Source: an uncultured Alcaligenaceae bacterium
GTDB lineage: Bacteria; Planctomycetota; Planctomycetia; Gemmatales; Gemmataceae
Assembly: GCA_964597065.1 (NCBI GenBank)
Contig: CAZQXG010000005.1
Location: 6,700-70,699, forward strand
Direction: 5' to 3'
DNA length: 64,000 nucleotides
Below, piece after piece: positions 1,398 to 64,000 of this stretch. The position numbers and the translations under genes were made by a program. Positions within the stretch are counted from its first letter, which is position 1. The number at the start of each line of letters is the position of its first letter. The notes below the pieces were generated by a model. The model ran no database searches. It was not told the origin of the DNA and was given only the letters and a program-made list of their open reading frames with translations.

Positions 1398-2192
1398 ATG
1401 CGCGCCAACCCGGTAAAGAAAGCATTGAAGGAAGGCCGGCCGGCGGTGGGGACCTGGCTGTCGCTGGGCAACATCATCGCCGCTCGTTTCCTGGCCCGGG
1501 CCGGCTTCGCCTGGCTCACGGTGGACATCGAGCATAGCCTGGTGGGCTGGGAGACGGCCACGCACATGTTTGCCTCGATCGCCGACGCCGGCTGCACCGC
1601 CCTGGCCCGCGTCCCTTCCAACCGGCACGACCACATCAAGCGCGTGCTGGACAACGGCGGCCACGGCATTGTCGTGCCCATGGTCAATAGCCGGCATGAG
1701 GCCGAGCAGGCCGTGGCAGCCTGCCTCTATCCGCCGTTCGGCAATCGCAGCGTCGGCGGCAGCGTCCATGCCCTCAATTTCGGCACCAACGCCAACGACT
1801 ACTACGCCCATGCCAACCAGGAAGTGCTGATCGTCTTGCAGTGCGAGCACATCCAGGCCGTGGAAACGGCGGATGAGATTTTTTCGGTTCCCGGGATCGA
1901 CGCCATCTTCGTCGGCCCGCACGATCTGGCCGCCAGCATGCGCGGCCAAGACGGCTCGCCCCCCAGCGCCGAGGCCACCCGCCAGGCCATGAAGCACATC
2001 CTCAACACCTGCAAAAAGCACCAAGTGGCCGCTGGACTGCACTGCGCCACCCCGGAGGAGGTCCTCCAGCGCATCGATGAGGGCTGGCAATTCATCGCCA
2101 TCGGCAGCGAGCTGCGCATGCTGCTGGGCGCGGCCGCCGATATCGTTCAGAAGCTCGGAGCAGCCAAGAGCGGCGAGATGGCCAAGTATTAA
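1398..2192 (+). CDS. HpcH/HpaI-family aldolase
   Basis: 264 aa. MRANPVKKALKEGRPAVGTWLSLG...DIEH...VPMVNS...FVGPHDLA is the typical HpcH/HpaI aldolase layout. Confidence 0.85.
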   Translation: MRANPVKKALKEGRPAVGTWLSLGNIIAARFLARAGFAWLTVDIEHSLVGWETATHMFASIADAGCTALARVPSNRHDHIKRVLDNGGHGIVVPMVNSRHEAEQAVAACLYPPFGNRSVGGSVHALNFGTNANDYYAHANQEVLIVLQCEHIQAVETADEIFSVPGIDAIFVGPHDLAASMRGQDGSPPSAEATRQAMKHILNTCKKHQVAAGLHCATPEEVLQRIDEGWQFIAIGSELRMLLGAAADIVQKLGAAKSGEMAKY

Positions 2193-2263
2193 ATGGAAAC
2201 GGCCCGGCAGAGCCCGGGCACGACACGGGACGGCGGCCTGGACTTTGCACCAAGGCACGCTCC

Positions 2264-2280
2264 GCGGGGAGTCCCCGCGA
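2264..2280. other. GC-rich palindrome next to the 3' side of the template-repeat-like segment
   Basis: cgcggggagtccccgcg. CGCGGG pairs with CCCGCG around a short loop, about 20 nt beyond the repeat end on the minus strand. Confidence 0.4.
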
Positions 2281-2299
2281 ATTCTGGCAAGGCAAGGTG

Positions 2300-2407
2300 C
2301 TCGCCGCACGGAAGCCATTGTTGTCGTTCTGGTTGCCCGGCCGGTTCCTGTTGCGGTTGCCGGAACGGACGTTCGCTGGTTGATTGTTGAACGTGCCGCC
2401 ACGCAAC
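2300..2407 (-). repeat. DGR template repeat (TR)-like segment, Asn-codon rich
   Basis: 108 nt, gap-free colinear with 3444-3551 with identical 13-14 nt flanks. Reads LRGGTFNNQPANVRSGNRNRNRPGNQNDNNGFRAA (10 AAY codons in 27). No start context, and homology to the FGE gene stops a few codons upstream. Confidence 0.65.
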
Positions 2408-2440
2408 CCACGGCTACACGGTCGCCGCCCTGGAAATGGA

Positions 2441-2695
2441 TCACGCAGATGCCCTTTGCATAAAGCGATCAAACGCGGACGCCTCGATCAATCCGTTGTC
2501 CACCAGCTGCCGGCGAACAACCACCATGTCGCGGTCATTGACGATTTCCTTGGACTCGTGCGCACGAAACAGCAGCACTGTCCCCGTCGTCGGATGCTCG
2601 AATCGAGTGCGATTCGGTTCCTGCGACGATTGGCAAAAGCCCAAGTCCACAAGCAGTTCCCGCAACTCATCAAATGTGATTCCATGTTTGCTCAT
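2441..2695 (-). CDS. small protein, HicA-like layout (uncertain)
   Basis: ATG at 2695 (MSKHGITFDELRELLVDLGF...FEHPTTGTVLLF). Overlaps the upstream DUF4365 gene by 26 nt, suggesting an operon. The family call is from memory only. Confidence 0.45.
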   Translation of the reverse strand: MSKHGITFDELRELLVDLGFCQSSQEPNRTRFEHPTTGTVLLFRAHESKEIVNDRDMVVVRRQLVDNGLIEASAFDRFMQRASA

Positions 2696-3116
2696 GATCG
2701 GTCTCCCAATGGCGCGCGAGCATGGCTGCTTTCCGCCGCGCGAATTCACGCATCGCTTTTTCGTTCAGCACGTTTGCCGTGGGAATCGGAACTGTGATCG
2801 TTTTACCACGGAGCTGGCCGAAGGCAAAATAGCTCTGGACCAGTAACCAATAGGCGCGATCATTTGCCGCATCGTACATTACCAAGGTTATCGGATAGAC
2901 TGTTGCCTTCAGTTGTATCCAGAGAACGCCGCTTTCAAGATAACCGCGTTTGTCGAAGGTGAAGACTGCCAGGTCAAGGCCATAATCGTGCCAAACCCGG
3001 TCCACCGCATAACCGCAGCCCAACGCGATTTTCTCGACGTGGTTGGCACTCAAATCGGCCAGGACATGCGCGCGGGTCCGTCGCTTGCGTGGCGGGCTGA
3101 TGGGTTGCCTGGCCAA
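2670..3116 (-). CDS. DUF4365-like (restriction-endonuclease-fold) protein
   Basis: 148 aa with the HDYGLDLAV and WIQLKAT motifs characteristic of DUF4365. TTG start at 3116 lies 8 nt after AGGAGG. Confidence 0.6.
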   Translation of the reverse strand: MARQPISPPRKRRTRAHVLADLSANHVEKIALGCGYAVDRVWHDYGLDLAVFTFDKRGYLESGVLWIQLKATVYPITLVMYDAANDRAYWLLVQSYFAFGQLRGKTITVPIPTANVLNEKAMREFARRKAAMLARHWETDHEQTWNHI

Positions 3117-3134
3117 GATTGCTTCCTCCTCACG

Positions 3135-3317
3135 TCATCGTTCAGGCCACGGTTCCTTGGCCGCGATCAACGTCTCCAAAAGATTGTACAGGTTTCCCTC
3201 AATCCGTTCGCCCAGGACAAACCGGTAATTGCGCGGGAACCGACTGATGTGATGGCAACACCACAGAATCAAATCGTAGGTCTTGGTGATCACGATCAGT
3301 TCTTGGCCTTGTTTCAT
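3135..3317 (-). pseudogene. avd: truncated avd (DGR accessory variability determinant, four-helix-bundle family)
   Basis: ELIVITKTYDLILWCCHHISRFPRNYRFVLGERIEGNLYNLLETLIAAKE matches the N-terminal half of Avd-type proteins. The ORF stops at 60 aa, about half normal length, directly abutting the DUF4365 gene. Confidence 0.65.
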
Positions 3318-3364
3318 GGGGATATGATACTGTCATTTTGGCAGGCACGATTTTTTCAAATCGA

Positions 3365-3383
3365 AACCCGCCTTCGGCGGGTT
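3365..3383 (-). other. stem-loop between the target gene stop and the avd stub
   Basis: aacccgcc-ttc-ggcgggtt, an 8-bp GC-rich stem. On the minus strand it is followed by UUUCGAUUU and a second small hairpin, cgatttgaaaaaatcg. Confidence 0.5.
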
Positions 3384-3424
3384 CTTCAAAAAAAACAAAA
3401 ACCAAAAGTAGTAAAGTAGTAAAG

Positions 3425-6400
3425 CTACTCAGTGGTCAAAGTCCTCGCCGCACGGAAACCCACATTGAGGTTGCGGACCGTCGGCTGGAACCTGTTGCGG
3501 TAGGAGGAGCGGACGAGCACCGGTAGATAGTCGAACGAGCCGCCACGCAACACGCGGCCCATTTTATCCAAAACCTCCTTTTCCTTGTATTCAACATCGG
3601 CGAAGGGATTTTCACCCTTTGGAGTCGGGTAATACAAAACCGGATCGTGGCACCATTCCAACGCGTTGCCGAGCATATCCAACAGGCCGAAGTCGTTGGG
3701 CAGCAAGCTGCCGGCGGGCAGCATCCAGCGGTCCAGCGAGTTTTTGCTGTACCAGGCGTAGCGCGGCAGCAACTCCTCAGTTTCGCCGAAGTACCGGCTG
3801 GTCGCGGCCTCGCCCCGGCAGGCGAATTCCCATTCGGCCTCGGTGGGCAGCCGGTAGCCGCTCCGTTTCAGATAGTCGGGCACTGCTTTCATCCCTTCCG
3901 CGTATTGCCCTTGGGCGTTTTTCACATAACACCACTGTTGCTCGGGGATTTCCTCCTTGTCGCTCAGCCAGTTGCAGTAGGCGGCAGCAGCGTACCAGGT
4001 GACCAGGTTGACGGGGCAATCGGGCTTGGGGGCGTAAATCTTGTTGTAGTCATGGCTGTTGCGGAAGCGCAGAAACTGCTCAACGGTGACTTCCCTGGTT
4101 GCGATGGCGAAGGTGCGGGTGATGCGCTTCTTGTGCCGCAATTCCGTTTTCCCTTCGGGCCCGCCGTCCCGGCCGGCCTCACTCGTCGGCGAGCCCATCC
4201 AGAACTGCTTGACCGGGCCCATCACCGAGAACGTCTGCCCCTGGCCGTTGATATACCAGCGGCGCTTTTTGAGGTGCTCGGCCAGCTGAAGTTCGGAGCT
4301 GGCCAGCTCCTTGTCGATGACTTGGAGCTTGTCTCCCTGCTGCCATTGGCGGAGGAGCCAGTCGGCGGCGCCGTGGATGCCGGGATCCCGGTCGTTGCGA
4401 TAAAGCTCCAGCACCCTGGTTGTTAACGTTTCGCGCTCGCTTGCCGCAAGCTTGTCGCTGCCGAACTCGCCCAGGGCCAATAACATGGCGCGGCGGCTGG
4501 AGACATCCGGCTCCACGAACAAGCGCTGGCTGAGCATTTGAGGGTCGGCCCCGAGCAAGGGGAGTTGCCGAATCAGGTAACTGCGCCGGCGCGGGTCGGC
4601 GGAGTGCCGAAAGAGCGGCCATACCTTGTCCGGCTGAGCCATTCGCAGCAACGCTACGGCCGCGTTGGCCTGCCTTTTGGCCCATGTCTCCGTGGCGTCC
4701 TCGTGTTCCTTGGCTAATCTGTCTGTGTCCTTGGCCAACCGTTCCAGGGCGCTGCCGTCAACGATGGCCAGCGTGTAGCTGCCGCTGCCCTTCAACGAGG
4801 CGGCATAAACCTTGTAGGCACCGGCTGTGGCCGGCGTGAAGTCGAGCCTGGCGTTGAGACCTCCGCCGCTATCGTCGTCAAAGGCCAGCTGCTTGCCGGC
4901 CTTGTCGTGGAGCACCAGAAAAGCGTCCAGCTCGGCACTGGTCATGGTGATGGCGTACTTCTTGCCGGCCGGCAATTTGACGTCGTGAACCTTGGCGGGC
5001 AGGGCAAATGCTTGCGTGCCGTCGGAGCCCCGCACCTTGGCATCCTCGGCGGCAATGGTGCCGTGAACTTTGATGATCTCCGGGACCTTGACAGCCTTCG
5101 CCACGGCCGGGGCCGGCAGCTGCTTGGCGAGTTCACCCTCCAGCGCGGCGCGGCCGGCCTGTCCGTGCATCTGGAGCTTGACAAAAAGCAGGGCAAATTG
5201 CTTCCCCTCAGCGTCCGCCAGCAGCTCCGCCAGCAGGTCCGGCCGATCGGCGGCGTAGTCGGCCAGGATGTCCGTGGCCAGGGAACGCTCCGTCTCCCGG
5301 CGCTCTTGATCGCGGAAGATGCCGCCCAGTGGGTCCAGCAACGTCCTGCCCACCGGACGAAAAGAGTCCATCCAGGCGCCCACGTAGACCGCGGGAACAG
5401 CAACGAGGTCGGCCGCAACCGGCTTCTTGATCGCCTCCCAGCGCGGATCTTCCGGGGCATAGCTGGCCAGGGCGGAGGCCGCCCGCAGCCGCTGCGACTC
5501 TTTTCCTTTCGGAGGTTGCTCTGCCACGCTCCAGAGCTTGTCCAGCAGCTCCGGCTGATGGGCGGCGAGAGCGTCGCGGATCACGGGAGCTTCCTGCGGC
5601 TCGGCGTCGAGGAGCCGGCTGTAGAGGTATTTGACCTGCACGGAATCGACGGGCAGGAGGGCGAGGCTGGCGTGGAGCTGCTTGCGCATCTCCTGGTTGG
5701 CCTCGGCCTCGCGATAAGCATCTTGAAGGAGAGGGTCGATCCAGGGGCGATAACGCGCCATGTCGGCCACGATGCCCGGCACGTCCGCCGTGTTGGCAAC
5801 GAGGAGGCGGTCGCGCAAGGCATGGGCTTGGAGGGTGCCATAAGCTTCGTAGCTGCCCCAGCCGGCCAGGGCCAGTATGATTCCTATGAGCAAACCCCGG
5901 CCCGCGTGATAGCGGGTTGCCTTGCACATCATCTTGCGCTGCGGCACCGTCCAGTCGCGCTTGCGGGTGAACAGGCGGATGTTCAGCCATTCCCACCAGG
6001 CGGGCAGGTGGCGGTTTTGCGGCCTGCCCTGCCACAGGGCGGCGCGCTCCGCCAGCCGCAGCTGGGCCCGGCCTCGCCAGGTCTCCTTCTGCTTGCGCGT
6101 CAGCCATTCCCGCAGCGAGGGAACCAGATAGTCGTGCGTAAGCTGGTAGAACTTGCTTTCGTAGCCACAAGCAGCCTTGCTTGTGGGCTGGTCAGCCGAC
6201 AAGCAAGGCTGCTTGTCGCTACGGAACTCATCTTCTTCCGGCTCGGTGGGCGTGATCAGGCGCAGGTCGCTGTCCAGGATGCGCAGCAAGTCCTGGAAGT
6301 CCCCGGGGCGCTGGCTGTATCCGGAGGCATCGACAAGCTGCTGGTGGGAGCGGAGGTTGCCCTTGATCTCGGTGCCGGCGTCGGGCAGGAGGGCTTTGAG

Positions 6401-8512
6401 GACGGCCTGGGCGGCTTTTTGCTGGCGGCGATGCTGCGGAGGCGCGGTGGGGGTGGAAAAGGTTTCTTCCAGGAAGGTCACGCCCACGCCGGCGGCGCCG
6501 CCGATTTCCTTCCAGGTGGCCGGCAGCCAGGCCTTGCCCTTGACCATGTCGGCAAACAAGGCCAAGCGGACGGAAATGACCTTGCCATCCTGGGCCAACC
6601 CGGACACCGCTTGGTCGAGGAAAGCTTCCTGGTCCCTGTTTACCTGGGCGAGGTTGTCCGGCAAGCGGCCAAAAGCGCGGCCAAACTCGGCCAGCACCTT
6701 TTGGGCATGGGCGAGGTCGAACAGGTCCACGGCGGCACAGTTTTGCCCTTGCAGCAGGGGGATTTCCAGCTCCTCGAAGAAGCGCGTCACCGCCATCCAG
6801 AAATCGTCCCGGACCAGCACCAGGCACTGGACATGTTCGCCGTCGCAGTGCCGCAAGGCCTGGACCAGGTGCGGATTTTTTTCACCCCGGCGGGCATGCA
6901 GCCATTGCTCGAACTGGTCCAGGACAAGCAAAACCTTTCTGCCGGGAGCCAGGCCCTGGCCGGCGCGCAGGGCCGCCAGGGATTCCAGCAACCCGTCTTC
7001 GGCCGGCAGTCCGGGACAATGCTTGCGCAAGCCTTTTTCGAGGCGGGTTTCGGTTTCCCCGGGGCTGGCTTCGAGGTAAACGGCGGACACGTGGCCGGCC
7101 AGGCGCGGCAGCAGGCCGGCTTTCAGCAGCGACGACTTGCCGCACCCCGACGGCCCGTAGATCAGCCCCACGGAAAAGGTCCGGTCGGCATCGGCCTCCT
7201 CGATGCGCATCTTCCAGAAGCGCAGGCTTTCGGGCAAGCCGTCCCGATCGCGCGGGCCGGGAAGCAGCTCCAAAAAGAAGTCGGCATCGGCGGCGTCGAA
7301 CGAGCGCAGGCCCTTGGGAATGATCTTGACGGGCTTGGCCGCCGTGCCTGGCACAGGGCCTGGCTCCGGCTTGCCGTCGAGAAAGTGGTCGATGTCTTCG
7401 GCCAGGTCCTTAGCGGTTTGGTAGCGCTCGCTGACGCGCTTGGCCAGGGCCTTGAGGCAAATGCGCTCCAGCTCGCGCGGGATGGCATCGTCGATTTGCC
7501 GGGGCGGCCGCGCTTCCAGCTCGATGATTTGCTGGATGAGGTCGATTCGGGTGGCCCCCTGGAAAGGCCGGCGGCCGCTGAGCAATTCATAGAAGACCAC
7601 GCCCAGGCTGAAGATGTCGGCCCGGCCGTCGACGCGGTGGCTCTCCTTGCGGGCCTGTTCCGGGCTCATGTAAGCAAAGGTGCCGACCAGGTTGGCCGGC
7701 CCCTTGCCGAAGTCCTTTTCCTCGAGGGCCAGGCCAAAATCGGCCAGGAAAGGATGGCCCCTGTCGTCCAGAAGAATGTTGGCGGGCTTGACGTCGCGGT
7801 GGACCAGGCCATGGATATGGGCGCAGTGCAAGGCCTCCGCCACGCGCGCTGTCAAGGCGGCCGCTTCGGCCACGGCGGGCCGGCCTTGCCGCATCCGCTC
7901 GGCCAGGTTGTTGCCGGCGATGAAATCCGACACGAAAAAGCACGCCCCTTCCCCGGTTTGTTCCACGTCGTGGACCCCGACGATGTGGGGATGCCGCAGC
8001 CGGGCCAGGACCTGGGCCTCTTTCAAAAACAGGCCGGCAATTTCCGGGTCGGCAGCCAGGTGCGCATGCAAGACCTTGATGGCCACGTCCCGGGCCAAAA
8101 GAACATGCCGGGCCAGATACACCACACCGAAGCCGCCCTTGCCGAGCTCTTTGTGGATCTGAAACCGGTCCGGAAGCCTCGGCGGGCTGGCACGGGGCGA
8201 TGCCGGCATGTCGACACGATCCGCGGTTACCGTCCTGGCTTTGCAGAATACCTCTTTCACCATTTCCGCATGTTCCGGGAAACAGCTCAGGTAGTCTTCC
8301 AGGAACGGTGTTTCCCCATTCTGGCGGCGCAGCTCCAGCTCTCGGGCCAAAAGCGCGCGCAAGAGATAAGAGCGGTCAGCCTCTCCCGCCAGGGCCAGCA
8401 GGTCCGCGATGGCCGGACGCGGGCCGGCCTTCCAGGCCTTTTCGAAGCGGTCACAGATCTCCTCGACCCGCAACAAAAGGGACGGCGACAGGGAATCAGC
8501 GGCATCGTTCAT
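3425..8512 (-). CDS. Ser/Thr protein kinase / P-loop (STAND-like) NTPase / TM / helical repeats / PPC domain / FGE-sulfatase (C-type lectin fold) protein
   Basis: 1695 aa. Contains kinase motifs (GKGGFGVVY, HRDVKPANILL, DFGLA) and a Walker A (GPSGCGKSSLLKAG). A hydrophobic helix (LLIGIILALAGWGSY) and a PPC-like block (YAITMTSAELDAFLVLHDKAGKQLAFDDDSGG) follow. C-terminal FGE domain: RLPTEAEWEFACRG...RVLRGGSF...GFRAA. Confidence 0.93.
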   Translation of the reverse strand: MNDAADSLSPSLLLRVEEICDRFEKAWKAGPRPAIADLLALAGEADRSYLLRALLARELELRRQNGETPFLEDYLSCFPEHAEMVKEVFCKARTVTADRVDMPASPRASPPRLPDRFQIHKELGKGGFGVVYLARHVLLARDVAIKVLHAHLAADPEIAGLFLKEAQVLARLRHPHIVGVHDVEQTGEGACFFVSDFIAGNNLAERMRQGRPAVAEAAALTARVAEALHCAHIHGLVHRDVKPANILLDDRGHPFLADFGLALEEKDFGKGPANLVGTFAYMSPEQARKESHRVDGRADIFSLGVVFYELLSGRRPFQGATRIDLIQQIIELEARPPRQIDDAIPRELERICLKALAKRVSERYQTAKDLAEDIDHFLDGKPEPGPVPGTAAKPVKIIPKGLRSFDAADADFFLELLPGPRDRDGLPESLRFWKMRIEEADADRTFSVGLIYGPSGCGKSSLLKAGLLPRLAGHVSAVYLEASPGETETRLEKGLRKHCPGLPAEDGLLESLAALRAGQGLAPGRKVLLVLDQFEQWLHARRGEKNPHLVQALRHCDGEHVQCLVLVRDDFWMAVTRFFEELEIPLLQGQNCAAVDLFDLAHAQKVLAEFGRAFGRLPDNLAQVNRDQEAFLDQAVSGLAQDGKVISVRLALFADMVKGKAWLPATWKEIGGAAGVGVTFLEETFSTPTAPPQHRRQQKAAQAVLKALLPDAGTEIKGNLRSHQQLVDASGYSQRPGDFQDLLRILDSDLRLITPTEPEEDEFRSDKQPCLSADQPTSKAACGYESKFYQLTHDYLVPSLREWLTRKQKETWRGRAQLRLAERAALWQGRPQNRHLPAWWEWLNIRLFTRKRDWTVPQRKMMCKATRYHAGRGLLIGIILALAGWGSYEAYGTLQAHALRDRLLVANTADVPGIVADMARYRPWIDPLLQDAYREAEANQEMRKQLHASLALLPVDSVQVKYLYSRLLDAEPQEAPVIRDALAAHQPELLDKLWSVAEQPPKGKESQRLRAASALASYAPEDPRWEAIKKPVAADLVAVPAVYVGAWMDSFRPVGRTLLDPLGGIFRDQERRETERSLATDILADYAADRPDLLAELLADAEGKQFALLFVKLQMHGQAGRAALEGELAKQLPAPAVAKAVKVPEIIKVHGTIAAEDAKVRGSDGTQAFALPAKVHDVKLPAGKKYAITMTSAELDAFLVLHDKAGKQLAFDDDSGGGLNARLDFTPATAGAYKVYAASLKGSGSYTLAIVDGSALERLAKDTDRLAKEHEDATETWAKRQANAAVALLRMAQPDKVWPLFRHSADPRRRSYLIRQLPLLGADPQMLSQRLFVEPDVSSRRAMLLALGEFGSDKLAASERETLTTRVLELYRNDRDPGIHGAADWLLRQWQQGDKLQVIDKELASSELQLAEHLKKRRWYINGQGQTFSVMGPVKQFWMGSPTSEAGRDGGPEGKTELRHKKRITRTFAIATREVTVEQFLRFRNSHDYNKIYAPKPDCPVNLVTWYAAAAYCNWLSDKEEIPEQQWCYVKNAQGQYAEGMKAVPDYLKRSGYRLPTEAEWEFACRGEAATSRYFGETEELLPRYAWYSKNSLDRWMLPAGSLLPNDFGLLDMLGNALEWCHDPVLYYPTPKGENPFADVEYKEKEVLDKMGRVLRGGSFDYLPVLVRSSYRNRFQPTVRNLNVGFRAARTLTTE
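3444..3551 (-). repeat. variable-repeat (VR)-like 3' end of the kinase gene
   Basis: Counterpart of 2300-2407. Reads LRGGSFDYLPVLVRSSYRNRFQPTVRNLNVGFRAA. By hand count there are 29 mismatches, 16 of them at coding-strand A positions of the 2300-2407 copy. Confidence 0.6.
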
Positions 8513-17452: not shown

Positions 17453-17580
17453 GAAAGCTGTTCCTCCACGCTCAGGACCGCGATCGCCAGCTCTTTTTGT
17501 GGATGGTCCTTGGCGCGCTGGCAGATTCTGGGATGGCCGTCCTGGAACAGCGTCAGGGTATCCGTGTCGAGGATGTGCAG
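17453..17580 (-). pseudogene. 5' fragment of a vapC gene (copy of 56161-56288)
   Basis: 128 nt, about 93% identical to the N-terminal coding part of the vapC at 55.9-56.3 kb (LHILDTDTLTLFQDGHPRICQRAKDHPQKELAIAVLSVEEQLS). It has no start codon and no C-terminal half. Confidence 0.8.
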
Positions 17581-26009: not shown

Positions 26010-26468
26010 TCAAGGCCGATTTGTCCCGCGTCGCGACTTGCTTGCCTGATTAGCCAGAGCTTTCAAGTAATGTCTCTCACGGCCGCGGATCGCTTTCCTT
26101 TGTTTTTCGGTCTTGTCGTCGTAGCTGCACAGGTGCAGCAGGCCGTGGATCACGTAGAGCGCCAACTCGTCCTGAACGTGGTGTCCTCGCCTTCTTGCCT
26201 CCGCGACGGCCACTTCCATGCCCACCACGATTTCTCCGCTTATTTTCGCACCGGCTTCGCCAAGCGGAAAGCTCAAGACGTCGGTTGGCTCGTCGTGCTT
26301 CAGGTAGCGCTTGTTGAGCTGATGGATGGTCGCGTTGTCCACGAAGGCCAGGCTAATCTCCGCGTCCCGAATGCCCTCTCCCTGGAGCACTTGCCGAACG
26401 ATGTCCCGGAGGCGGCGGCGGTTGAGTGACACAACCTCCTGAGGACTGGCTATGGCGATGCGGAACAT
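26010..26468 (-). CDS. ybeY: rRNA maturation RNase YbeY
   Basis: ATG at 26468. TDVLSF...HGLLHLCSYDD is the metal-binding motif. Confidence 0.9.
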   Translation of the reverse strand: MFRIAIASPQEVVSLNRRRLRDIVRQVLQGEGIRDAEISLAFVDNATIHQLNKRYLKHDEPTDVLSFPLGEAGAKISGEIVVGMEVAVAEARRRGHHVQDELALYVIHGLLHLCSYDDKTEKQRKAIRGRERHYLKALANQASKSRRGTNRP

Positions 26469-26470
26469 TG

Positions 26471-26565
26471 CAAATTTCAGATTGCAGATTTTAGATTGCC
26501 AAATCAGGCCGCTGCGATTGCCGATGTCTTTCAATCTGCAATCTGCAATCTGAAATCTGCAATCT
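26471..26565. repeat. inverted arrays of CAGATTG-type heptamers
   Basis: The left arm (cagattg cagattt tagattg) and right arm (caatctg x3, aaatctg, caatct) can pair over about 21 bp. Lies in the divergent ybeY/26687 intergenic region. Confidence 0.85.
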
Positions 26566-38429: not shown

Positions 38430-39041
38430 ATGGCTTTCAGCAACTTCAGCCTCCAAGAACTCGCCAGGACCTATGAGGTGAGCGTTGGCATTGCACCGTT
38501 CATCCATGCAAGTCCTTATTCGGTGAACGAATACTTTGCCAACGACCTGGCCTTCGTGCGGCAAAACATGGACGTGCGCGTTTCCGAGGCAGCGATCTGC
38601 GAATTCATGATCGCGCCGGTGCTTAAAGAAATCTGGAAAGCCTACAGCGATACGTTCTTAATGTGGAGCCATGTTTCCTTTGGGAGGGAACAACCGCTGA
38701 TCGGGATGCCGGACTACTATTTTTCGTGGAGGTCGCCGCTCGGGCTAGTGCCGGACCAGCCCTACCTGATCGTGGCCGAGGCCAAGAAAGACGATTTCGA
38801 AGCTGGCTGGGGACAGTGCCTGGCAGCCATGCTGGCCGCCCAGAAGATGAACGGGCAAACGACTTGGACCGTCTACGGTTGCGTGTCCAACGGCAGCCTC
38901 TGGAATTTTGGAAAACTGAAAGGCCGGGTTTTCACCCAGGAGACTCAACAGTTCGTGATCACCGATCTGCCGCAACTTTTTGGGGCCCTGGATTATATCT
39001 TTGCTCGGGCCAAGGAGCAGGTGCAGGCACCGGCGGCTTGA
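38430..39041 (+). CDS. PD-(D/E)XK nuclease-fold protein, paralogue 1
   Basis: ATG after AGGAGGAG. PDYYF...LIVAEAKKDDFEAGWGQCLAAM gives a D...EAK motif typical of restriction-endonuclease-like proteins. Confidence 0.65.
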   Translation: MAFSNFSLQELARTYEVSVGIAPFIHASPYSVNEYFANDLAFVRQNMDVRVSEAAICEFMIAPVLKEIWKAYSDTFLMWSHVSFGREQPLIGMPDYYFSWRSPLGLVPDQPYLIVAEAKKDDFEAGWGQCLAAMLAAQKMNGQTTWTVYGCVSNGSLWNFGKLKGRVFTQETQQFVITDLPQLFGALDYIFARAKEQVQAPAA

Positions 39042-39068: not shown

Positions 39069-39680
39069 ATGGCATTCAGTGCCTTTGGCAGTCTCAAGGA
39101 AACCGCGAGAACCTACCAGATTAGCGTGGTGATGGAGCGGTTCGTCCAGGTCAAACCGTACCCGGTCAATGAGGCCTTTACCAACGAGTTGGAGTTCGTG
39201 CGGAAAAACATCGACGTGCGGGTTTCGGAGATCGCCATCGGCGAATTCATCATCGCGCCCGTCTTGAAAGAGATCTGGAAAGCCTACAGCGACACGTTTT
39301 TGATGTGGAGCCACGCTCCCTTTGGGACGGAAGCGCCCCTGGTCGGAGCGCCAGACTACTATTTTTCGCGGAAGTCGCCGCTCGGCTTGATGCCCGATCA
39401 GCCGGACCTGATTGTCGCCGAGGCCAAGAAGGACGATTTCGACGCCGGCTGGGGACAGTGCCTGGCAGCCATGCTGGCTGCCCAGAAGATGAACGGACAA
39501 ACGACGTGGACAGTCTATGGCTGCGTGTCCAACGGGAACTCGTGGAGCTTTGGAAAACTGGAAGGCCGGGCTTTCACCCAGGAGTTGCAAGAATTTGGCA
39601 TCACCGATCTGCCGCGGCTTTTCGGGGCCCTGGATTATATCTTTGCTCGGGCCAAGGAGCAGGTGCAGGCGGCGGCTTGA
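39069..39680 (+). CDS. PD-(D/E)XK nuclease-fold protein, paralogue 2
   Basis: About 75-80% identical to 38430..39041 with the same motifs. Its own SD (AGGAG) precedes the ATG. Confidence 0.65.
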   Translation: MAFSAFGSLKETARTYQISVVMERFVQVKPYPVNEAFTNELEFVRKNIDVRVSEIAIGEFIIAPVLKEIWKAYSDTFLMWSHAPFGTEAPLVGAPDYYFSRKSPLGLMPDQPDLIVAEAKKDDFDAGWGQCLAAMLAAQKMNGQTTWTVYGCVSNGNSWSFGKLEGRAFTQELQEFGITDLPRLFGALDYIFARAKEQVQAAA

Positions 39681-47898: not shown

Positions 47899-51183
<3,285 letters not shown>

Positions 51184-55123: not shown

Positions 55124-55897
55124 ATGACCTACATCGAGACGTTTGACGACGGACCGGGCGGCTGGTTCAACGTGACCAACAACTTCGCCGGGCCGAAGAA
55201 GCTGGAGTATCGGCGGGGCAGCGTCACGGCGCGCAGCCCGTGGTGGGTGGATTACAACCACGCCCCTCCCGGCGCCGGCTACCTGCACATGCTGTTCGTG
55301 CTGCCCACGCATGGCCCACTGGGCGAGGCGGTCATGGAAGCCGGCGGCGTCAACCGCTTTATCCTCGGCGAGCAACTCGGCAAGCAACTCGGCAAGCAAC
55401 TCGGCAAGCAACTCGGCAAGCAACTCGGCGAGCAACTCGGCGAGCAAGCGGGCGGGTTTGCCACCGATTTCACAAAGGCTCGGCTCACGGTGCGCTGGCA
55501 GGGGGAACTCGAGACGCGCGGCGCGCAGCCTTGCCTGTTGCTGCAAGCGTCGGCCGAAGGGCTGGTTTCAGGTTGGGCTTGCACCGGCCGCCCGTTTCAG
55601 GTCACGCCCGACTGGACCGAGCAGACCATCACCATCGAGCCCGACGAATCGCTATGGACATGCCTGGGCGGACGTCACGATCGGACGGCTTTCTATGGCC
55701 GGCTCGACCTGGCCCGCGTCATTGGCGACGTCAACGTGAACCTGATGCTCATCTTGTTTCCCCTGGATATCGTGCCCATGGGCCCCGTCGCCGGCGACCC
55801 GCATCGCCGCCGCGCCGATTGGGACTACCCCGTCTGGCGCTCGCGCTTGCCGGAAGGCTACGTCACGCTCGACGAGGTGCGGATTGAATTCCCATGA
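55124..55897 (+). CDS. hypothetical protein with internal QLGK repeat
   Basis: 257-aa ORF with protein-like composition and ATG at 55124. No family recognised. Confidence 0.55.
   Translation: MTYIETFDDGPGGWFNVTNNFAGPKKLEYRRGSVTARSPWWVDYNHAPPGAGYLHMLFVLPTHGPLGEAVMEAGGVNRFILGEQLGKQLGKQLGKQLGKQLGEQLGEQAGGFATDFTKARLTVRWQGELETRGAQPCLLLQASAEGLVSGWACTGRPFQVTPDWTEQTITIEPDESLWTCLGGRHDRTAFYGRLDLARVIGDVNVNLMLILFPLDIVPMGPVAGDPHRRRADWDYPVWRSRLPEGYVTLDEVRIEFP
55370..55453 (+). repeat. 12-nt tandem repeat, about 7 units
   Basis: (g/a)agcaactcggc repeated. Encodes EQLGKQLGKQLGKQLGKQLGEQLGEQ. Confidence 0.9.
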
Positions 55898-55910: not shown

Positions 55911-56293
55911 TCAGCCCCGCGAGACTCGGAGCGTTGGGCTGCCGGTCGCGGCCTGTTCGAGGACTGTAGCTGCGATGCGCACATCTGTCTTGCGGATTTT
56001 CAATTTGAGCTTCGCCAATTCGTGGTAGCGCTGAATGGCTGGCTTGTCGAAGGCGACAATTTGCAACCGGGACAAGAAATGGACGTTTTCGGCCAGTCGC
56101 CGGTACGCCCAGGCGAGTTCGTCGTTGCACTTTGCTCTGCGCAGAGCGGTGTACCACCCGGAAAGCTGTTCCTCCACGCTCAGAACCGTGATCGCCAACT
56201 ATTTTTGTGGATGATCCTTGGCGCGCTGGCAGATTCTGGGATGGCCCTCCTGGAACAACGTCAGGGTATCCGTGTCGAGGATATGCAGGCTCA
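55911..56293 (-). pseudogene. vapC: vapC (PIN toxin) with in-frame TAG
   Basis: MSLHILDTDTLTLFQEGHPRICQRAKDHPQK-TAG-LAITVLSVEEQLSGWYT... The 17.5-kb fragment copy has GAG at that codon. The C-terminus also looks aberrant. Confidence 0.75.
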
Positions 56294-56777: not shown

Positions 56778-59009
56778 ATGAAAACGATGCGCTGGATATC
56801 CCTGCAAATCTTGGCGGGCATCGCCCTTCTCGTGGTGAGCCTGGCAGGCCGATCCCAAGAAACTGCGGCGGCGGGCAAGGCGGCCGAGCACTGGTCCTTT
56901 CACAAGCCGGTGCGGCCCGTGCTGCCCGACGCCGGCCGGCTCAAGTACGGCGACCGGGTGCGCAATCCTATCGATGCGTTTGCCCTGAAGAAGCTGGAAC
57001 AGGAGGAGCTGGTGCCGGCGCCTCGGGCTGACAAGCATACTCTGGTGCGCCGCGCGTATTTCGACCTGCTCGGCCTACCTCCCACGCCCGAGCAGGTTGC
57101 CAAGTTCGTCCGCGATTCCTCCGCCGACGCCTGGCCCAAGCTGATCGATGAGCTGCTCAAATCACCGCACTACGGCGAGCGCTGGGGCCGGCACTGGCTT
57201 GACGTCGCGCGCTACGCCGACTCGGGCGGCTATGAGACCGACATCTATTACCGCAATGCCTGGCGCTATCGCGACTACGTGGTCAAGTCGTTCAACGACG
57301 ACAAGCCTTATGACCGGTTTGTGCAAGAACAAGTCGCCGCCGACGAGATTTGGCCCGATAACCTCGACCTTCAGCCGCGGCGGGTCTACATCGTCTCCGA
57401 GGAAAAGCGCCAACACCTTGAAGCCCGGCTCGGCACCGGCTTCTATGCACTCGGCCCGCAGATCCATGAATCGGGCCTGGACGCCGGGAAACTCAGGTAC
57501 GAGCAATTGACCGATTGGGTGGACGCCACCGGCTCGGTGTTCTTGGGCTTGACGATCGGCTGCGCGCGTTGCCACAACCACAAGTTCGATCCGATTACGC
57601 ACCGCGACTACTTCGGCATGCAGGCGATTTTCGCCGGCAGCGTTGAGGCCGAGGCGCCGCTCTTGACCGCCATGGAGATTGCCGATTGGAAACAGAATTA
57701 TCCGAAGATTCTGGCGGTGGACGAGGCTCGCCGCGCCTACCGGTTGTTCGAGAAAAAGACCGCCGGGCGAAAATTGACCCTGGAAGAAGCGCAGCAACGC
57801 CGGCAGCTTCTGGAGAACATCGCCCAGGGGGTGCTGCAGCTTCCCGAACGAGCCGCCTCGGTTCCCTCCTCGCCGTATGACGGCCTGATGGAGGTCCCGA
57901 CGGCCACGGTGCTTGGACACGAGCACCGCGAGCTGGCCAAGCCTGTCCACCTGCTCCAGCGCGGCGAACTCAGCCGGCCGCGACAAAAGATCGACGCGGC
58001 GCTGCCCGTCACGCTGGCCGCAGCCACCGGTTGCAAGCCATCCCTTCCCGGCCCCTTTGGCAGCCGCAAGCAGTTGGCCCTGTGGCTGACGCAGCCGGAC
58101 CACCCGCTGACGGCCCGAGTGATGGTCAATCGCATCTGGCACTGGCATTTCGGCCGCGGTCTCGTCGCCACGCCCAACGATTTCGGCGCCATGGGTCGGC
58201 CGCCGACCCATCCCGAATTGTTGGACTGGCTGGCCAGCGAATTCGTCGCCCAAGGCTGGAGCATCAAAAAGATGCACCGCCTGATCATGCTTTCAAGCAC
58301 CTACCAGATGTCGAGCCGTTCCAGCACCAGCGCAGACCTGAGGCGGGATCCGGACAATCGCTATCTGTGGCGGATGAACCGCCGCCGCCTGGAAGCAGAA
58401 GCGCTATGGGACTGTGTGCACGCCGCCGGCGGCACGCTGAACTTGCAGATGGGCGGCCGGCCTGTGGTGCCGCCGCTGGCCGACGATGAGATCGCTGCTT
58501 TACGCGAGAAGTGGCACTGGCCCGTCGCCGCCGACCCGCGCCAGCACACGCGGCGTGGCATGTATATCCTGGTGCGCCGCAATTTCCGCTTCCCCATGTT
58601 CGAAGTCTTCGACGGGCCGGTCACGTCCGTCAGTTGTCCCGCGCGCGACGTGACCACGGTGGCGCCCCAGGCATTGTGGAGCTTGAACAATCGCTCGGTG
58701 TTCCGCCAGGCGCAAGCATTCGCCGGCCGCGTGCTGAAAGAGGCGGGCGACAACCCCGAGCATTTTCTCGACCGCGCCTGGCTCATCGCGCTGGCCCGGC
58801 CGCCGTCGGCACAAGAAAAACGCGAAGGCTTGACGTTGCTCGACACACTCGCCCGGCGCGCCGGCAAGAGCGGCAGCGGCCGGCCAACCCACGTCCCTCT
58901 GGACCATCCGCCTAAAGAACTCATGGCACTGCCCCCGGAACGAGCGGCAGCGCTGGTGCAGTTCTGCCTTGCGCTTTACAACGTGAACGAATTTGCGTTT
59001 GTCGACTGA
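56778..59009 (+). CDS. DUF1549/DUF1553 (PSD1-type) protein
   Basis: ATG at 56778 after GGGAG, with a signal peptide. NPIDAFALKKL...YFDLLGLPPTPEQV...HYGERWGRHWLDVARYADS...CARCHNHKFDPI. Confidence 0.9.
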   Translation: MKTMRWISLQILAGIALLVVSLAGRSQETAAAGKAAEHWSFHKPVRPVLPDAGRLKYGDRVRNPIDAFALKKLEQEELVPAPRADKHTLVRRAYFDLLGLPPTPEQVAKFVRDSSADAWPKLIDELLKSPHYGERWGRHWLDVARYADSGGYETDIYYRNAWRYRDYVVKSFNDDKPYDRFVQEQVAADEIWPDNLDLQPRRVYIVSEEKRQHLEARLGTGFYALGPQIHESGLDAGKLRYEQLTDWVDATGSVFLGLTIGCARCHNHKFDPITHRDYFGMQAIFAGSVEAEAPLLTAMEIADWKQNYPKILAVDEARRAYRLFEKKTAGRKLTLEEAQQRRQLLENIAQGVLQLPERAASVPSSPYDGLMEVPTATVLGHEHRELAKPVHLLQRGELSRPRQKIDAALPVTLAAATGCKPSLPGPFGSRKQLALWLTQPDHPLTARVMVNRIWHWHFGRGLVATPNDFGAMGRPPTHPELLDWLASEFVAQGWSIKKMHRLIMLSSTYQMSSRSSTSADLRRDPDNRYLWRMNRRRLEAEALWDCVHAAGGTLNLQMGGRPVVPPLADDEIAALREKWHWPVAADPRQHTRRGMYILVRRNFRFPMFEVFDGPVTSVSCPARDVTTVAPQALWSLNNRSVFRQAQAFAGRVLKEAGDNPEHFLDRAWLIALARPPSAQEKREGLTLLDTLARRAGKSGSGRPTHVPLDHPPKELMALPPERAAALVQFCLALYNVNEFAFVD
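58881..59009 (+). repeat. direct repeat A (functional 3' end of the DUF1553 gene)
   Basis: 129 nt, about 92% identical to 59966-60094. Confidence 0.85.
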
Positions 59010-59016
59010 TCAATAC

Positions 59017-59927: not shown

Positions 59928-59965
59928 GCTGGCAGAAGCAAGAAGCGAAGCAGCACGACAGCGGC

Positions 59966-60094
59966 CGGCCAGCCCAGGTCCCACTGGACCATCCGCCCAA
60001 AGAACTCACGGCACTCCCCCCGGAACGAGCGGCAGCCCTGGTGCAGTTCTGCCTGGCGCTTTACAACGTGAACGAATTTGCCTTCGTCGACTGA
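59966..60094 (+). repeat. direct repeat B (displaced copy of the DUF1553 gene 3' end, frame preserved)
   Basis: Encodes RPAQVPLDHPPKELTALPPERAAALVQFCLALYNVNEFAFVD*, versus RPTHVPLDHPPKELMALPPERAAALVQFCLALYNVNEFAFVD* in copy A. Confidence 0.85.
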
Positions 60095-60164
60095 CCACCA
60101 AGGGGAAAAACAAGAAACACTCGGGACTCTTGACATCGGGCCCAGCACCGGTTCTACTCACTAT

Positions 60165-63501: not shown

Positions 63502-64000
63502 TTGACGATCCCGCAGATTCTGGCTTGGGCCGATAGTCATTACGCCCGTACTAGGACTTGGCCCACGGCAAAGAGCTCCGGGAGTGTACTGGAAAACCGG
63601 AATGAGACGTGGGTAGGGATTAACGCAGCATTGACAGGGGGCGGGCGCGGCCTTGATGGCGGTTTAACGCTGGCTAAACTCCTTGCCCGCGAGCGGGGCG
63701 TGCGCAATGCCAGTGACCTGCCGCCGTTGACCATCGCCCAAATCCTGGCCTGGGCCGACAGTCATCATGCTCGTACCGGCACTTGGCCCAGCGGAAAGAA
63801 GGTGTCGGGGCGAGTATTGGAAAACCGGAATGAGACGTGGATAGGGATTAACAGAGCATTGCAAGGGGGCGGGCGCGGCCTCGATGGCGGTTTAACGCTG
63901 GCTAAACTCCTTGCTCGCGAGCGGAAGTGGTCCGGTGTCAATGGCGCACTCGGAAAGGGGGCGCTTGGAGTTCGTGGCTTGCGCGGTCGCCTCACGCTAC
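63502..64000 (+). CDS. repeat protein (75-aa units), open to the window edge
   Basis: Frame 1 is open from 63436 to 64000. It has two full 225-nt units (LTIxQILAWADSHxARTxTWP...ETWxGINxALxGGGRGLDGGLTLAKLLARER). No ATG is present, so TTG at 63502 is a possible start, or this is a 5'-truncated fragment. Confidence 0.5.
   Translation, partial: MTIPQILAWADSHYARTRTWPTAKSSGSVLENRNETWVGINAALTGGGRGLDGGLTLAKLLARERGVRNASDLPPLTIAQILAWADSHHARTGTWPSGKKVSGRVLENRNETWIGINRALQGGGRGLDGGLTLAKLLARERKWSGVNGALGKGALGVRGLRGRLTL

Follow-up and report, generated by a model that had tools for sequence, protein, structure and literature searches.

In the 64,000-nucleotide stretch of contig CAZQXG010000005.1 that was analysed in this study (the window), a group of genes and repeats on the minus strand has the appearance of a diversity-generating retroelement (DGR). 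A preliminary description of this locus had proposed a decayed DGR without reverse transcriptase (RT), containing an asparagine-rich template repeat (TR), a stub of the accessory gene avd and a variable region (VR) at the 3' end of a gene that combines a kinase with an FGE-sulfatase/C-type-lectin fold, and this proposal is supported by the comparison with intact relatives presented here. The target gene, encoding the variable protein of the element, is located at 3425–8512 and consists of an uninterrupted open reading frame (ORF) of 1695 amino acids, in which Pfam and NCBIfam profiles identify a Pkinase domain (residues 117–367), an nSTAND1 NTPase (401–832), a weak PPC match and the terminal FGE-sulfatase/C-type-lectin fold (1440–1690), in line with the giant kinase gene of the earlier account. 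Homologues with 44–61% identity to this protein are found in metagenome-assembled genomes of Gemmatales, Planctomycetaceae and Pirellulaceae, which makes a planctomycete origin of the window most likely. The last 38 codons or so, at the C-terminus of the lectin fold, form the former VR (3444–3558, LRGGSFDYLPVLVRSSYRNRFQPTVRNLNVGFRAA), which is a gap-free repeat of positions 2300–2414. The corresponding TR (2300–2413) reads RGGTFNNQPANVRSGNRNRNRPGNQNDNNGFR and contains ten asparagines encoded by AAY codons, seven of which are replaced in the target gene, so that the asparagine-rich character ascribed to it is borne out by its reading frame.

A repeat search identified the pair as a gap-free repeat of 122 nt (family D6; 2293–2414 and 3437–3558, minus strand) with 73% identity and an offset of 1144 nt, and a blastn search of the window with the TR segment recovered it with E=2e-20 and found no further copy in the 64 kb. 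For the 108-nt frame that had been aligned by hand (2300–2407 and 3444–3551), our recount agrees with the gap-free alignment and its 29 mismatches, 16 of which are located at TR adenines, and the identical flanks, given as 13–14 nt, comprise 13 nt (GTTGCGTGGCGGC) and 14 nt (TTCCGTGCGGCGAG). The pair itself thus stands, with a correction of its bounds, in that the first codon (TTG) spans 2404–2406 and does not start at 2407 and the homology extends a few bases further on both sides. Over these 108 nt, the TR is composed of 28 A, 35 C, 32 G and 13 T, and the mismatch rate of 16/28 at adenines compared to 13/80 at other bases (Fisher odds ratio 6.9, p=9.7e-5) confirms that the enrichment persists once the composition is taken into account. 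In the core of the pair, which is wider than this frame, TR and VR differ at 16 of 28 adenines and at 15 of 87 other positions. The number of non-adenine mismatches in the window hence depends on the frame and amounts to 13 in the initial 108 nt, 15/87 in the core and 16/85 in the comparison with TRs of other loci described below. The differences between TR and VR are not confined to adenines, and the adenine bias remains as a historical signature only.

Further DGR features are found at the 3' boundaries of both repeats, with an initiation of mutagenic homing (IMH) site at the VR, a differing site (IMH*) at the TR and a hairpin 3' of the VR. The IMH (3434–3449, GGCGAGGACTTTGACC) starts with the 12 nt GGCGAGGACTTT, which are identical in most VRs of the related loci aligned in this comparison (L005, L007, L011, L016–L022, L030, L031 and L036). 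The IMH* (2291–2305, GGCGAGCACCTTGCC) contains GAGTACC in all 18 other TRs and GAGCACC in the window only (column 110), whereas the window VR has retained the clade-like GGCGAGGACTTT. The stop codon of the target gene is directly followed by two CTTTAC repeats (3408–3424), which are conserved 3' of the VRs of the clade, and by a T-rich segment of 25 nt (3383–3407) which is private to the window. Next to it, the hairpin that had been noticed 3' of the target gene was located at 3365–3383 as a GC-rich stem closed by a 4-nt GAAG loop (AACCCGCC GAAG GGCGGGTT; fold z=-4.2), which is of the type involved in DGR target recognition. Its stem sequences vary among loci with preserved pairing (CCGCC/GGCGG, CCCCC/GGGGG). 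The distance between the hairpin and GGCGAG, as read from the listed sequences, is 68 nt in the window compared to 40–45 nt in hairpin-bearing relatives, a displacement of about 24 nt that results from the private T-rich insertion. An Rfam scan of positions 2100–3600 returned only sub-threshold matches to P9 sRNA, which fall on the hairpin.

Between the two repeats resides the truncated avd (3135–3317), an ORF of 60 residues, of which residues 1–54 (3156–3317) are homologous to Avd and the last six codons are junction sequence. The Avd-type stub described previously is recognized by the first 48 profile positions only, both in Pfam bAvd (1–48 of 107, E=1.8e-6) and in the NCBIfam family 'DGR protein Avd' (1–48 of 104, E=2e-11), and it has 228 homologues, with identities of 68–87% among the 120 matches listed. 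Since full-length Avd of the relatives comprises 112–115 residues in tblastn searches, the window retains residues 1–54 of about 115, and such a truncated protein cannot form a four-helix bundle. Of the RT, the cassette contains only the last 24 nt or so, including the stop codon TAG at 2414–2416 (2414–2437, ATTTCC--AGGGCGGCGACCGTGTAG), which align with the RT 3' ends of three intact loci (L014, L016 and L017; alignment A1) except for a deletion of 2 nt in the window; a DGR-clade RT is not encoded. The earlier failure to find an RT-like ORF was reproduced, as in the 64 kb neither a regular-expression search for YxDD yielded an RT-like candidate nor tblastn with the clade RT any match at E<0.5. 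The sole YxDD match in a long ORF, a YLDD at +43444 in an ORF of 663 residues, was rejected as RT because the clade-RT tblastn found no RT similarity.

The remainder of avd and RT (avd codons 55–115 and RT codons 1 to about 347) is replaced by a segment of about 0.72 kb (2438–3155) with two overlapping minus-strand genes, one encoding a DUF4365 protein (2670–3116; Pfam E=3e-10) with the ribosome binding site GAGGAGG and a TTG start and the other a HicA-like protein of 84 residues (2441–2695; weak Pfam match to HicA_toxin, E=2.6e-3). This segment is absent from all 40 related loci except for L008, an identical contig from the Logan collection. The preliminary description had assigned the site of the lost RT to the convergent aldolase gene (1398–2192, plus strand), which we had to revise. 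Because the order in the clade is target-avd-RT-TR and the RT stop remnant at 2414–2437 is found directly upstream of the TR, the RT was formerly located where the DUF4365 and HicA-like genes now sit, and the aldolase gene, which simply adjoins the end of the cassette, never displaced it. A single replacement event is enough to account for the RT-less state. With respect to the inserted genes, we note that the DUF4365 protein resembles the candidate defence family PDC-M02A of PADLOC (E=6e-8) and that, in the protein collection clustered at 90% identity, each of the two proteins stands alone in its cluster. The contig L008 (Logan SRR12113387), which equals about 2215–3447 of the window and covers TR, insert and avd stub, begins precisely at the VR 3' end, which could reflect low coverage or heterogeneity of the VR sequence in that sample.

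The original organization of the element is illustrated by its relatives. The good part of the RT of one related locus (L005) retrieved thousands of homologues with a canonical length of 355 amino acids, and homologues of this protein define a planctomycete DGR clade. Further loci of this clade (22) were collected by scanning metagenomes for the post-TR box GCGTGCCNNGGTGCAAAGTCCAG, together with one match from a viral collection; L021, which emerged from the same scan, is a chance pattern match with 26 deviations and was ignored. Three long contigs (L014, L016 and L017) contain complete loci of the order target (kinase/nSTAND1/FGE)-avd (112–115 amino acids)-RT-TR, in which avd shares 4 nt with the RT gene, whose stop codon marks the start of the TR. 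Their TR/VR pairs are 86–88% identical with all core mismatches located at TR adenines and non-adenine differences confined to the IMH/IMH* boundary (VR GAGGACTTT, TR GAGTACCTTGC). The order avd-RT-TR corresponds to cassette architecture B2 as classified previously (Wu et al., 2018; PMC5758913), and it is found in L014, L016, L017, L018, L024 and others, with all parts on one strand and the VR placed in a C-type-lectin/FGE fold. The window is collinear with these intact loci, on one side in VR, IMH, the two CTTTAC repeats, the GAAG-loop hairpin and avd codons 1–54, and on the other side in the last 24 nt of the RT gene, TR, IMH* and about 100 nt of a post-TR element (alignment A1). Its membership in the B2 planctomycete clade is manifested in the 5' part of avd, in an RT 3' end that directly adjoins the TR and in the GCGTGCC..GGTGCAAAGTCCAG box of the post-TR element. 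The window shares every surviving piece of the B2 layout and differs in the loss of the RT except for 24 nt, the loss of the 3' half of avd and the 13–15 non-adenine mismatches between TR and VR.

The post-TR element, which in the clade extends over about 110 nt directly 3' of the TR and contains three helices, was characterized in an alignment of the window with 22 related loci (A2). Folding of this alignment by RNAalifold resulted in 29 base pairs, ten of which show compensatory changes, and a comparison with Rfam release 15 matched no family. In the window (2202–2299; alignments A1 and A2), the element comprises a GCCAGAAT box, helix P1 (2261–2280), a GCGTGCC..GGTGCAAAGTCCAGG box (2237–2260) with helix P2 and a diverged P3. 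Out of 46 near-invariant columns, it deviates at the last three only, and its terminal GGCCAAATGA box and half of helix P3 are lost. The element presumably corresponds to a spacer-like or priming segment at the 3' side of the clade's DGR RNA. Independently of the RT, it can serve to find orphan TRs, which are missed by DGR finders that are anchored on the RT.

The aligned TRs allowed us to assign the non-adenine differences of the window pair to one or the other copy. Polarised against the TR consensus, seven of these mismatches show the clade-majority base in the VR and a private base in the TR, with three of the seven columns being invariant elsewhere. At three further core mismatches the VR deviates from the consensus, in each case towards a base seen in 5–7 other TRs, and a fourth column of this kind is located in the IMH. 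In total, the window TR carries at least ten private substitutions and is degenerate at six columns where all 18 other TRs agree, the latter deviating mostly at 0–1 such columns and in L027 at four. Among the private changes are the conversion of a scaffold arginine codon, conserved in every TR and VR, to CAG and the T to C change in the IMH*. The 16 mismatches at adenines, which had been counted together, have to be reduced to about 13 classic A-to-N changes, as in the other three, among them the one in the arginine codon, the A itself is a private substitution of the TR and the VR shows the clade-majority base. Two of the three fall in columns where G is fixed or almost fixed among the other TRs. 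At 16/85 non-adenine mismatches, the window VR is not more similar to the local TR than to those of L018, L022, L023 and L040 (13–14).

A graded series emerges if the state of the RT is compared with the number of non-adenine mismatches in the TR/VR core. Loci with intact RT (L014, L016, L017, L018, L020 and L024) show none at 86–93 positions, L022, whose RT is wholly deleted, a single one, L030 and L031, with an RT of full length in tblastn, two to three, L036, which has lost RT residues 179–279, four, and the window with its replaced RT 15 of 87. As one homing event would erase all non-adenine differences, the local TR has not written the local VR for a long time. We thus regard it as highly probable that the window contains a fossil DGR, which in the absence of an RT no longer diversifies its target gene from the local TR. 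The preliminary description had left open whether the locus is a fossil or a pair serviced by an RT encoded elsewhere; the 13–15 non-adenine mismatches compared to none in active relatives, the private changes of the TR and the lack of any special closeness of the VR to this TR favour the former and effectively exclude servicing in trans by the local TR. The VR would have become frozen at clade-typical non-adenine bases under purifying selection.

The mechanistic prototype is the active DGR of Bordetella phage BPP-1, with the order mtd-avd-TR-brt, a TR/VR pair, asymmetric IMH and IMH* sites, a GC-rich hairpin with a 4-nt loop 3' of the VR, a structured RNA segment 3' of the TR and a phage tail-fibre protein as target. 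The window shares with it the TR/VR pair, Avd in the form of a stub, the IMH/IMH* asymmetry, the hairpin and the structured 3' RNA, whereas BPP-1 differs in its avd-TR-RT order, its tail-fibre target, where the window clade has a cytoplasmic kinase/STAND protein, and in being active. By homology with the intact relatives and following the BPP-1 paradigm, avd, RT, TR and the structured post-TR element of the intact ancestor would have been transcribed, and a complex of RT and Avd would have produced adenine-mutagenised cDNA from the TR, which would have replaced the VR guided by the IMH GGCGAGGACTTT together with the GAAG-loop hairpin downstream of it. In a planctomycete host, the element would thereby have diversified the lectin-fold tip at the C-terminus of a protein that combines a kinase with a STAND NTPase. 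As the sequence shows, about 1.2 kb between avd codon 55 and RT codon 347 or so were subsequently exchanged for the 0.72-kb cassette encoding the DUF4365 nuclease-like and HicA-like proteins, which removed the RT and disabled Avd. The TR then acquired its at least ten private substitutions, the hairpin was shifted by 24 nt and the post-TR element lost its 3' end, while the target gene remained an intact ORF of 1695 residues.

Some observations weigh against this interpretation as a fossil. Private changes are unevenly distributed, with none at 43 near-invariant columns of the post-TR core, two at 53 of the avd stub and six at 66 of the TR, so that neutral decay may not have been uniform across the element, although the difference is marginal (p about 0.06, our own estimate and not a computed value). 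Moreover, the reading frame of the avd stub has remained open. A metagenome scan for strain variants and VR polymorphism with the window-specific 5' flank of the VR gave 0 matches, and a protein search for near-identical target variants with the last 260 residues found a best match of 65% identity. An exact look-up of the 1695-residue target protein in the protein collection yielded no record, unlike three small neighbour genes on the same contig, whose proteins are present in that collection.

Among the alternatives, we have considered ongoing diversification of the VR from another TR, which would be intact and belong to a sister DGR at some other place in the genome; the local TR and avd stub would then be the junk of a duplicated cassette. 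In favour of this view, the VR carries at nearly all non-adenine columns bases that occur in some TR of the clade, with only the base at column 92 found in none; the IMH core GGCGAGGACTTT recurs unchanged in most active VRs of the clade, and it is known that one genome can contain several related DGRs and remote targets (PMC10907252). However, even the best foreign TR in our comparison leaves 13 non-adenine mismatches, the 64 kb, to which the RT search extended, contain no second RT, TR or VR, and the displaced hairpin probably impairs target recognition, as suggested by the otherwise constant spacing of 40–45 nt. We thus consider servicing by such an intact sister element unlikely.

A related proposal, to which we attach a similarly low likelihood, takes the cassettes of the window and of L022 as 'satellite' DGRs instead of wrecks, whose TR and post-TR module, VR, or both would be used in trans by the RT and Avd of a sister element; if so, the RT-less target-avd-TR cassettes of the clade would be non-autonomous and not dead. 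In L022 (Ga0182037_10300092, 1291 nt), the 3' end of the target is followed by avd residues 5–109, a remnant of about 15 nt from the 3' end of the RT gene, the TR and finally the post-TR element, and despite the deletion of the RT its TR and VR differ at 13 adenines and a single other position, as a consequence of either a very recent loss of the RT or of a non-autonomous cassette that is serviced in trans.

The stricter version, in which the window cassette is live and its TR and post-TR RNA are currently used by the RT and Avd of another DGR of the clade to rewrite the VR, appears very improbable. It draws on the intact helices P1 and P2 and conserved post-TR boxes, on the presence of an IMH and a hairpin, on the mismatch pattern of L022 and on the trans activity reported for degenerate DGR loci in Thiohalocapsa (PMC10907252). 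Still, homing resets non-adenine positions, yet 13–15 of 87 differ in the window compared to none in active relatives, and the VR does not contain any private base of the local TR. Furthermore, the IMH* carries a mutation, the hairpin has moved by 24 nt and the RNA element lacks its terminal box. For the recent past, a live cassette is thus close to refuted.

A final possibility concerns the nature of the TR copy itself. The homologous kinase/FGE genes share in their last 105 nt, at the DNA level, the rare-codon flanks of the window VR (TTG CGT GGC GGC TCG TTC ... GGT TTC CGT CCG GCG AGG ACT TT), differ from the window TR mainly at its adenines and resemble it at 67–79% of its non-adenine positions because the FGE scaffold is conserved. 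In light of this resemblance, the copy could be viewed as a pseudogene remnant derived from an FGE-domain paralogue or as a chance likeness via the C-terminal FGE motif, but this can practically be dismissed, since the copy is flanked as in intact DGRs by the RT stop remnant upstream and the clade-specific post-TR element downstream, contains ten AAY codons like other TRs, is separated from the gene by a DGR-type Avd stub and loses its homology to the target gene at the TR boundaries, the last point having been made already against a paralogue fragment.

The decay observed in the window is not an isolated case. Within 10 kb of homologous kinase/FGE genes (L001–L007) or of Avd homologues (L009–L013) no TR was found, and in the latter, five long contigs, an nSTAND1/FGE gene is followed by avd. 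As mapped by tblastn, avd is truncated from its 3' side at residue 97 in L011, about 89 in L010, 80 in L009, 54 in the window and 46 in L007, and the RT ends at about residue 245 beside a serine recombinase in L005 and comprises residues 1–114 in L012 and 1–103 in L013. The TRs are therefore missing because the cassettes were truncated from the 3' side to different extents, and these graded truncations together with the intact relatives rule out that a target and avd without RT or TR constitute a functional split architecture. An intact RT is lacking in about half of the loci found by the post-TR box and in 7/7 avd-bearing loci found via the kinase or the Avd stub. The comparative set thus shows many independent states of decay, and RT loss is a common fate in this planctomycete clade.

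The individual loci illustrate different routes. In L035 (Ga0080064_1006225, oriented 4180–5620), avd and RT are replaced by a RAYT-like gene between the VR and a 5'-truncated TR; this gene was identified by eye from its translation (IS200/IS605 Y1 transposase, HYHFV motif, REP-like flanking palindromes), and its insertion is independent of, and analogous to, the replacement in the window. In L033 (Ga0206850_10066, about 1–1000 oriented), an FGE-domain ORF runs through a VR-like, adenine-depleted repeat (RGGSFSVPASYVRSSYRNSSVPSNRNSSLGFR) into the post-TR element, with no stop, IMH tail, avd or RT at the junction (GCGAGGACC), which looks like a recombination between VR and TR that deleted avd and RT as another way for a DGR to die. 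L036 and L037 have lost RT residues 179–279, a span that in the RT of L005 includes the catalytic YxDD box, and keep TR and post-TR element, which are also retained in L025 with RT residues 1–139 only and in L039 with residues 193–355 only. In L019, avd residues 5–29 are joined to half a TR and the post-TR element is kept.

Comparable loci have been described in other bacteria. 'Degenerate' DGR loci with missing or pseudogenised machinery were found in multicellular bacteria, among them Thiohalocapsa PB-PSB1 (Dore et al., 2024; PMC10907252). The same study describes targets with nSTAND1, Pkinase and a C-terminal lectin VR, loci shaped by mobile elements, planctomycetes among the named hosts and a test of trans activity by non-adenine matching in Thiohalocapsa and its relatives. 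The window resembles these degenerate loci in the mix of target domains and in its missing machinery, whereas its adjacent TR fails the non-adenine matching test, in a comparison limited to the local TR. In cyanobacteria, DGR variable proteins that combine an N-terminal kinase with a C-terminal C-type lectin are common and have many paralogues, some of which no longer match a TR (Vallota-Eastman et al., 2020; PMC7517822). The window protein has in common with them a kinase grafted to a DGR-diversified C-type lectin, and differs in phylum and RT clade and by additionally carrying an nSTAND1 NTPase. Given that degenerate DGR loci beside STAND, kinase and lectin proteins have already been described, the window matters little on its own. 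It offers a clean and datable example of the death of a DGR, in which the RT was removed by one replacement event, the TR then drifted and the once-hypervariable tip appears to have been frozen and kept.

Besides the TR/VR pair, the window contains several other repeats. Within the kinase/STAND gene, an inverted repeat of 34 nt with 91% complementarity and a 2-nt spacer is located at 6157–6226. Arrays of a 7-nt unit of the type GATTGCA/GATTTCA are found at 26467–26565 and 49471–49522, where they constitute inverted repeats 23 kb apart (I2, 39 nt, 92%) and also a local palindrome (I7). Direct repeats connect 17453–17580 with 56161–56288 (128 nt, 94% identity, 38.7 kb apart), 38447–38746 with 39089–39388 (300 nt, 76% identity, 642 nt apart), 58871–59012 with 59956–60097 (92% identity, about 1.1 kb apart) and 63577–63696 with 63805–63924 (91% identity, about 0.2 kb apart), and a 12-nt tandem array of about eight copies (CTCGGCAAGCAA) occupies positions 55352–55459.

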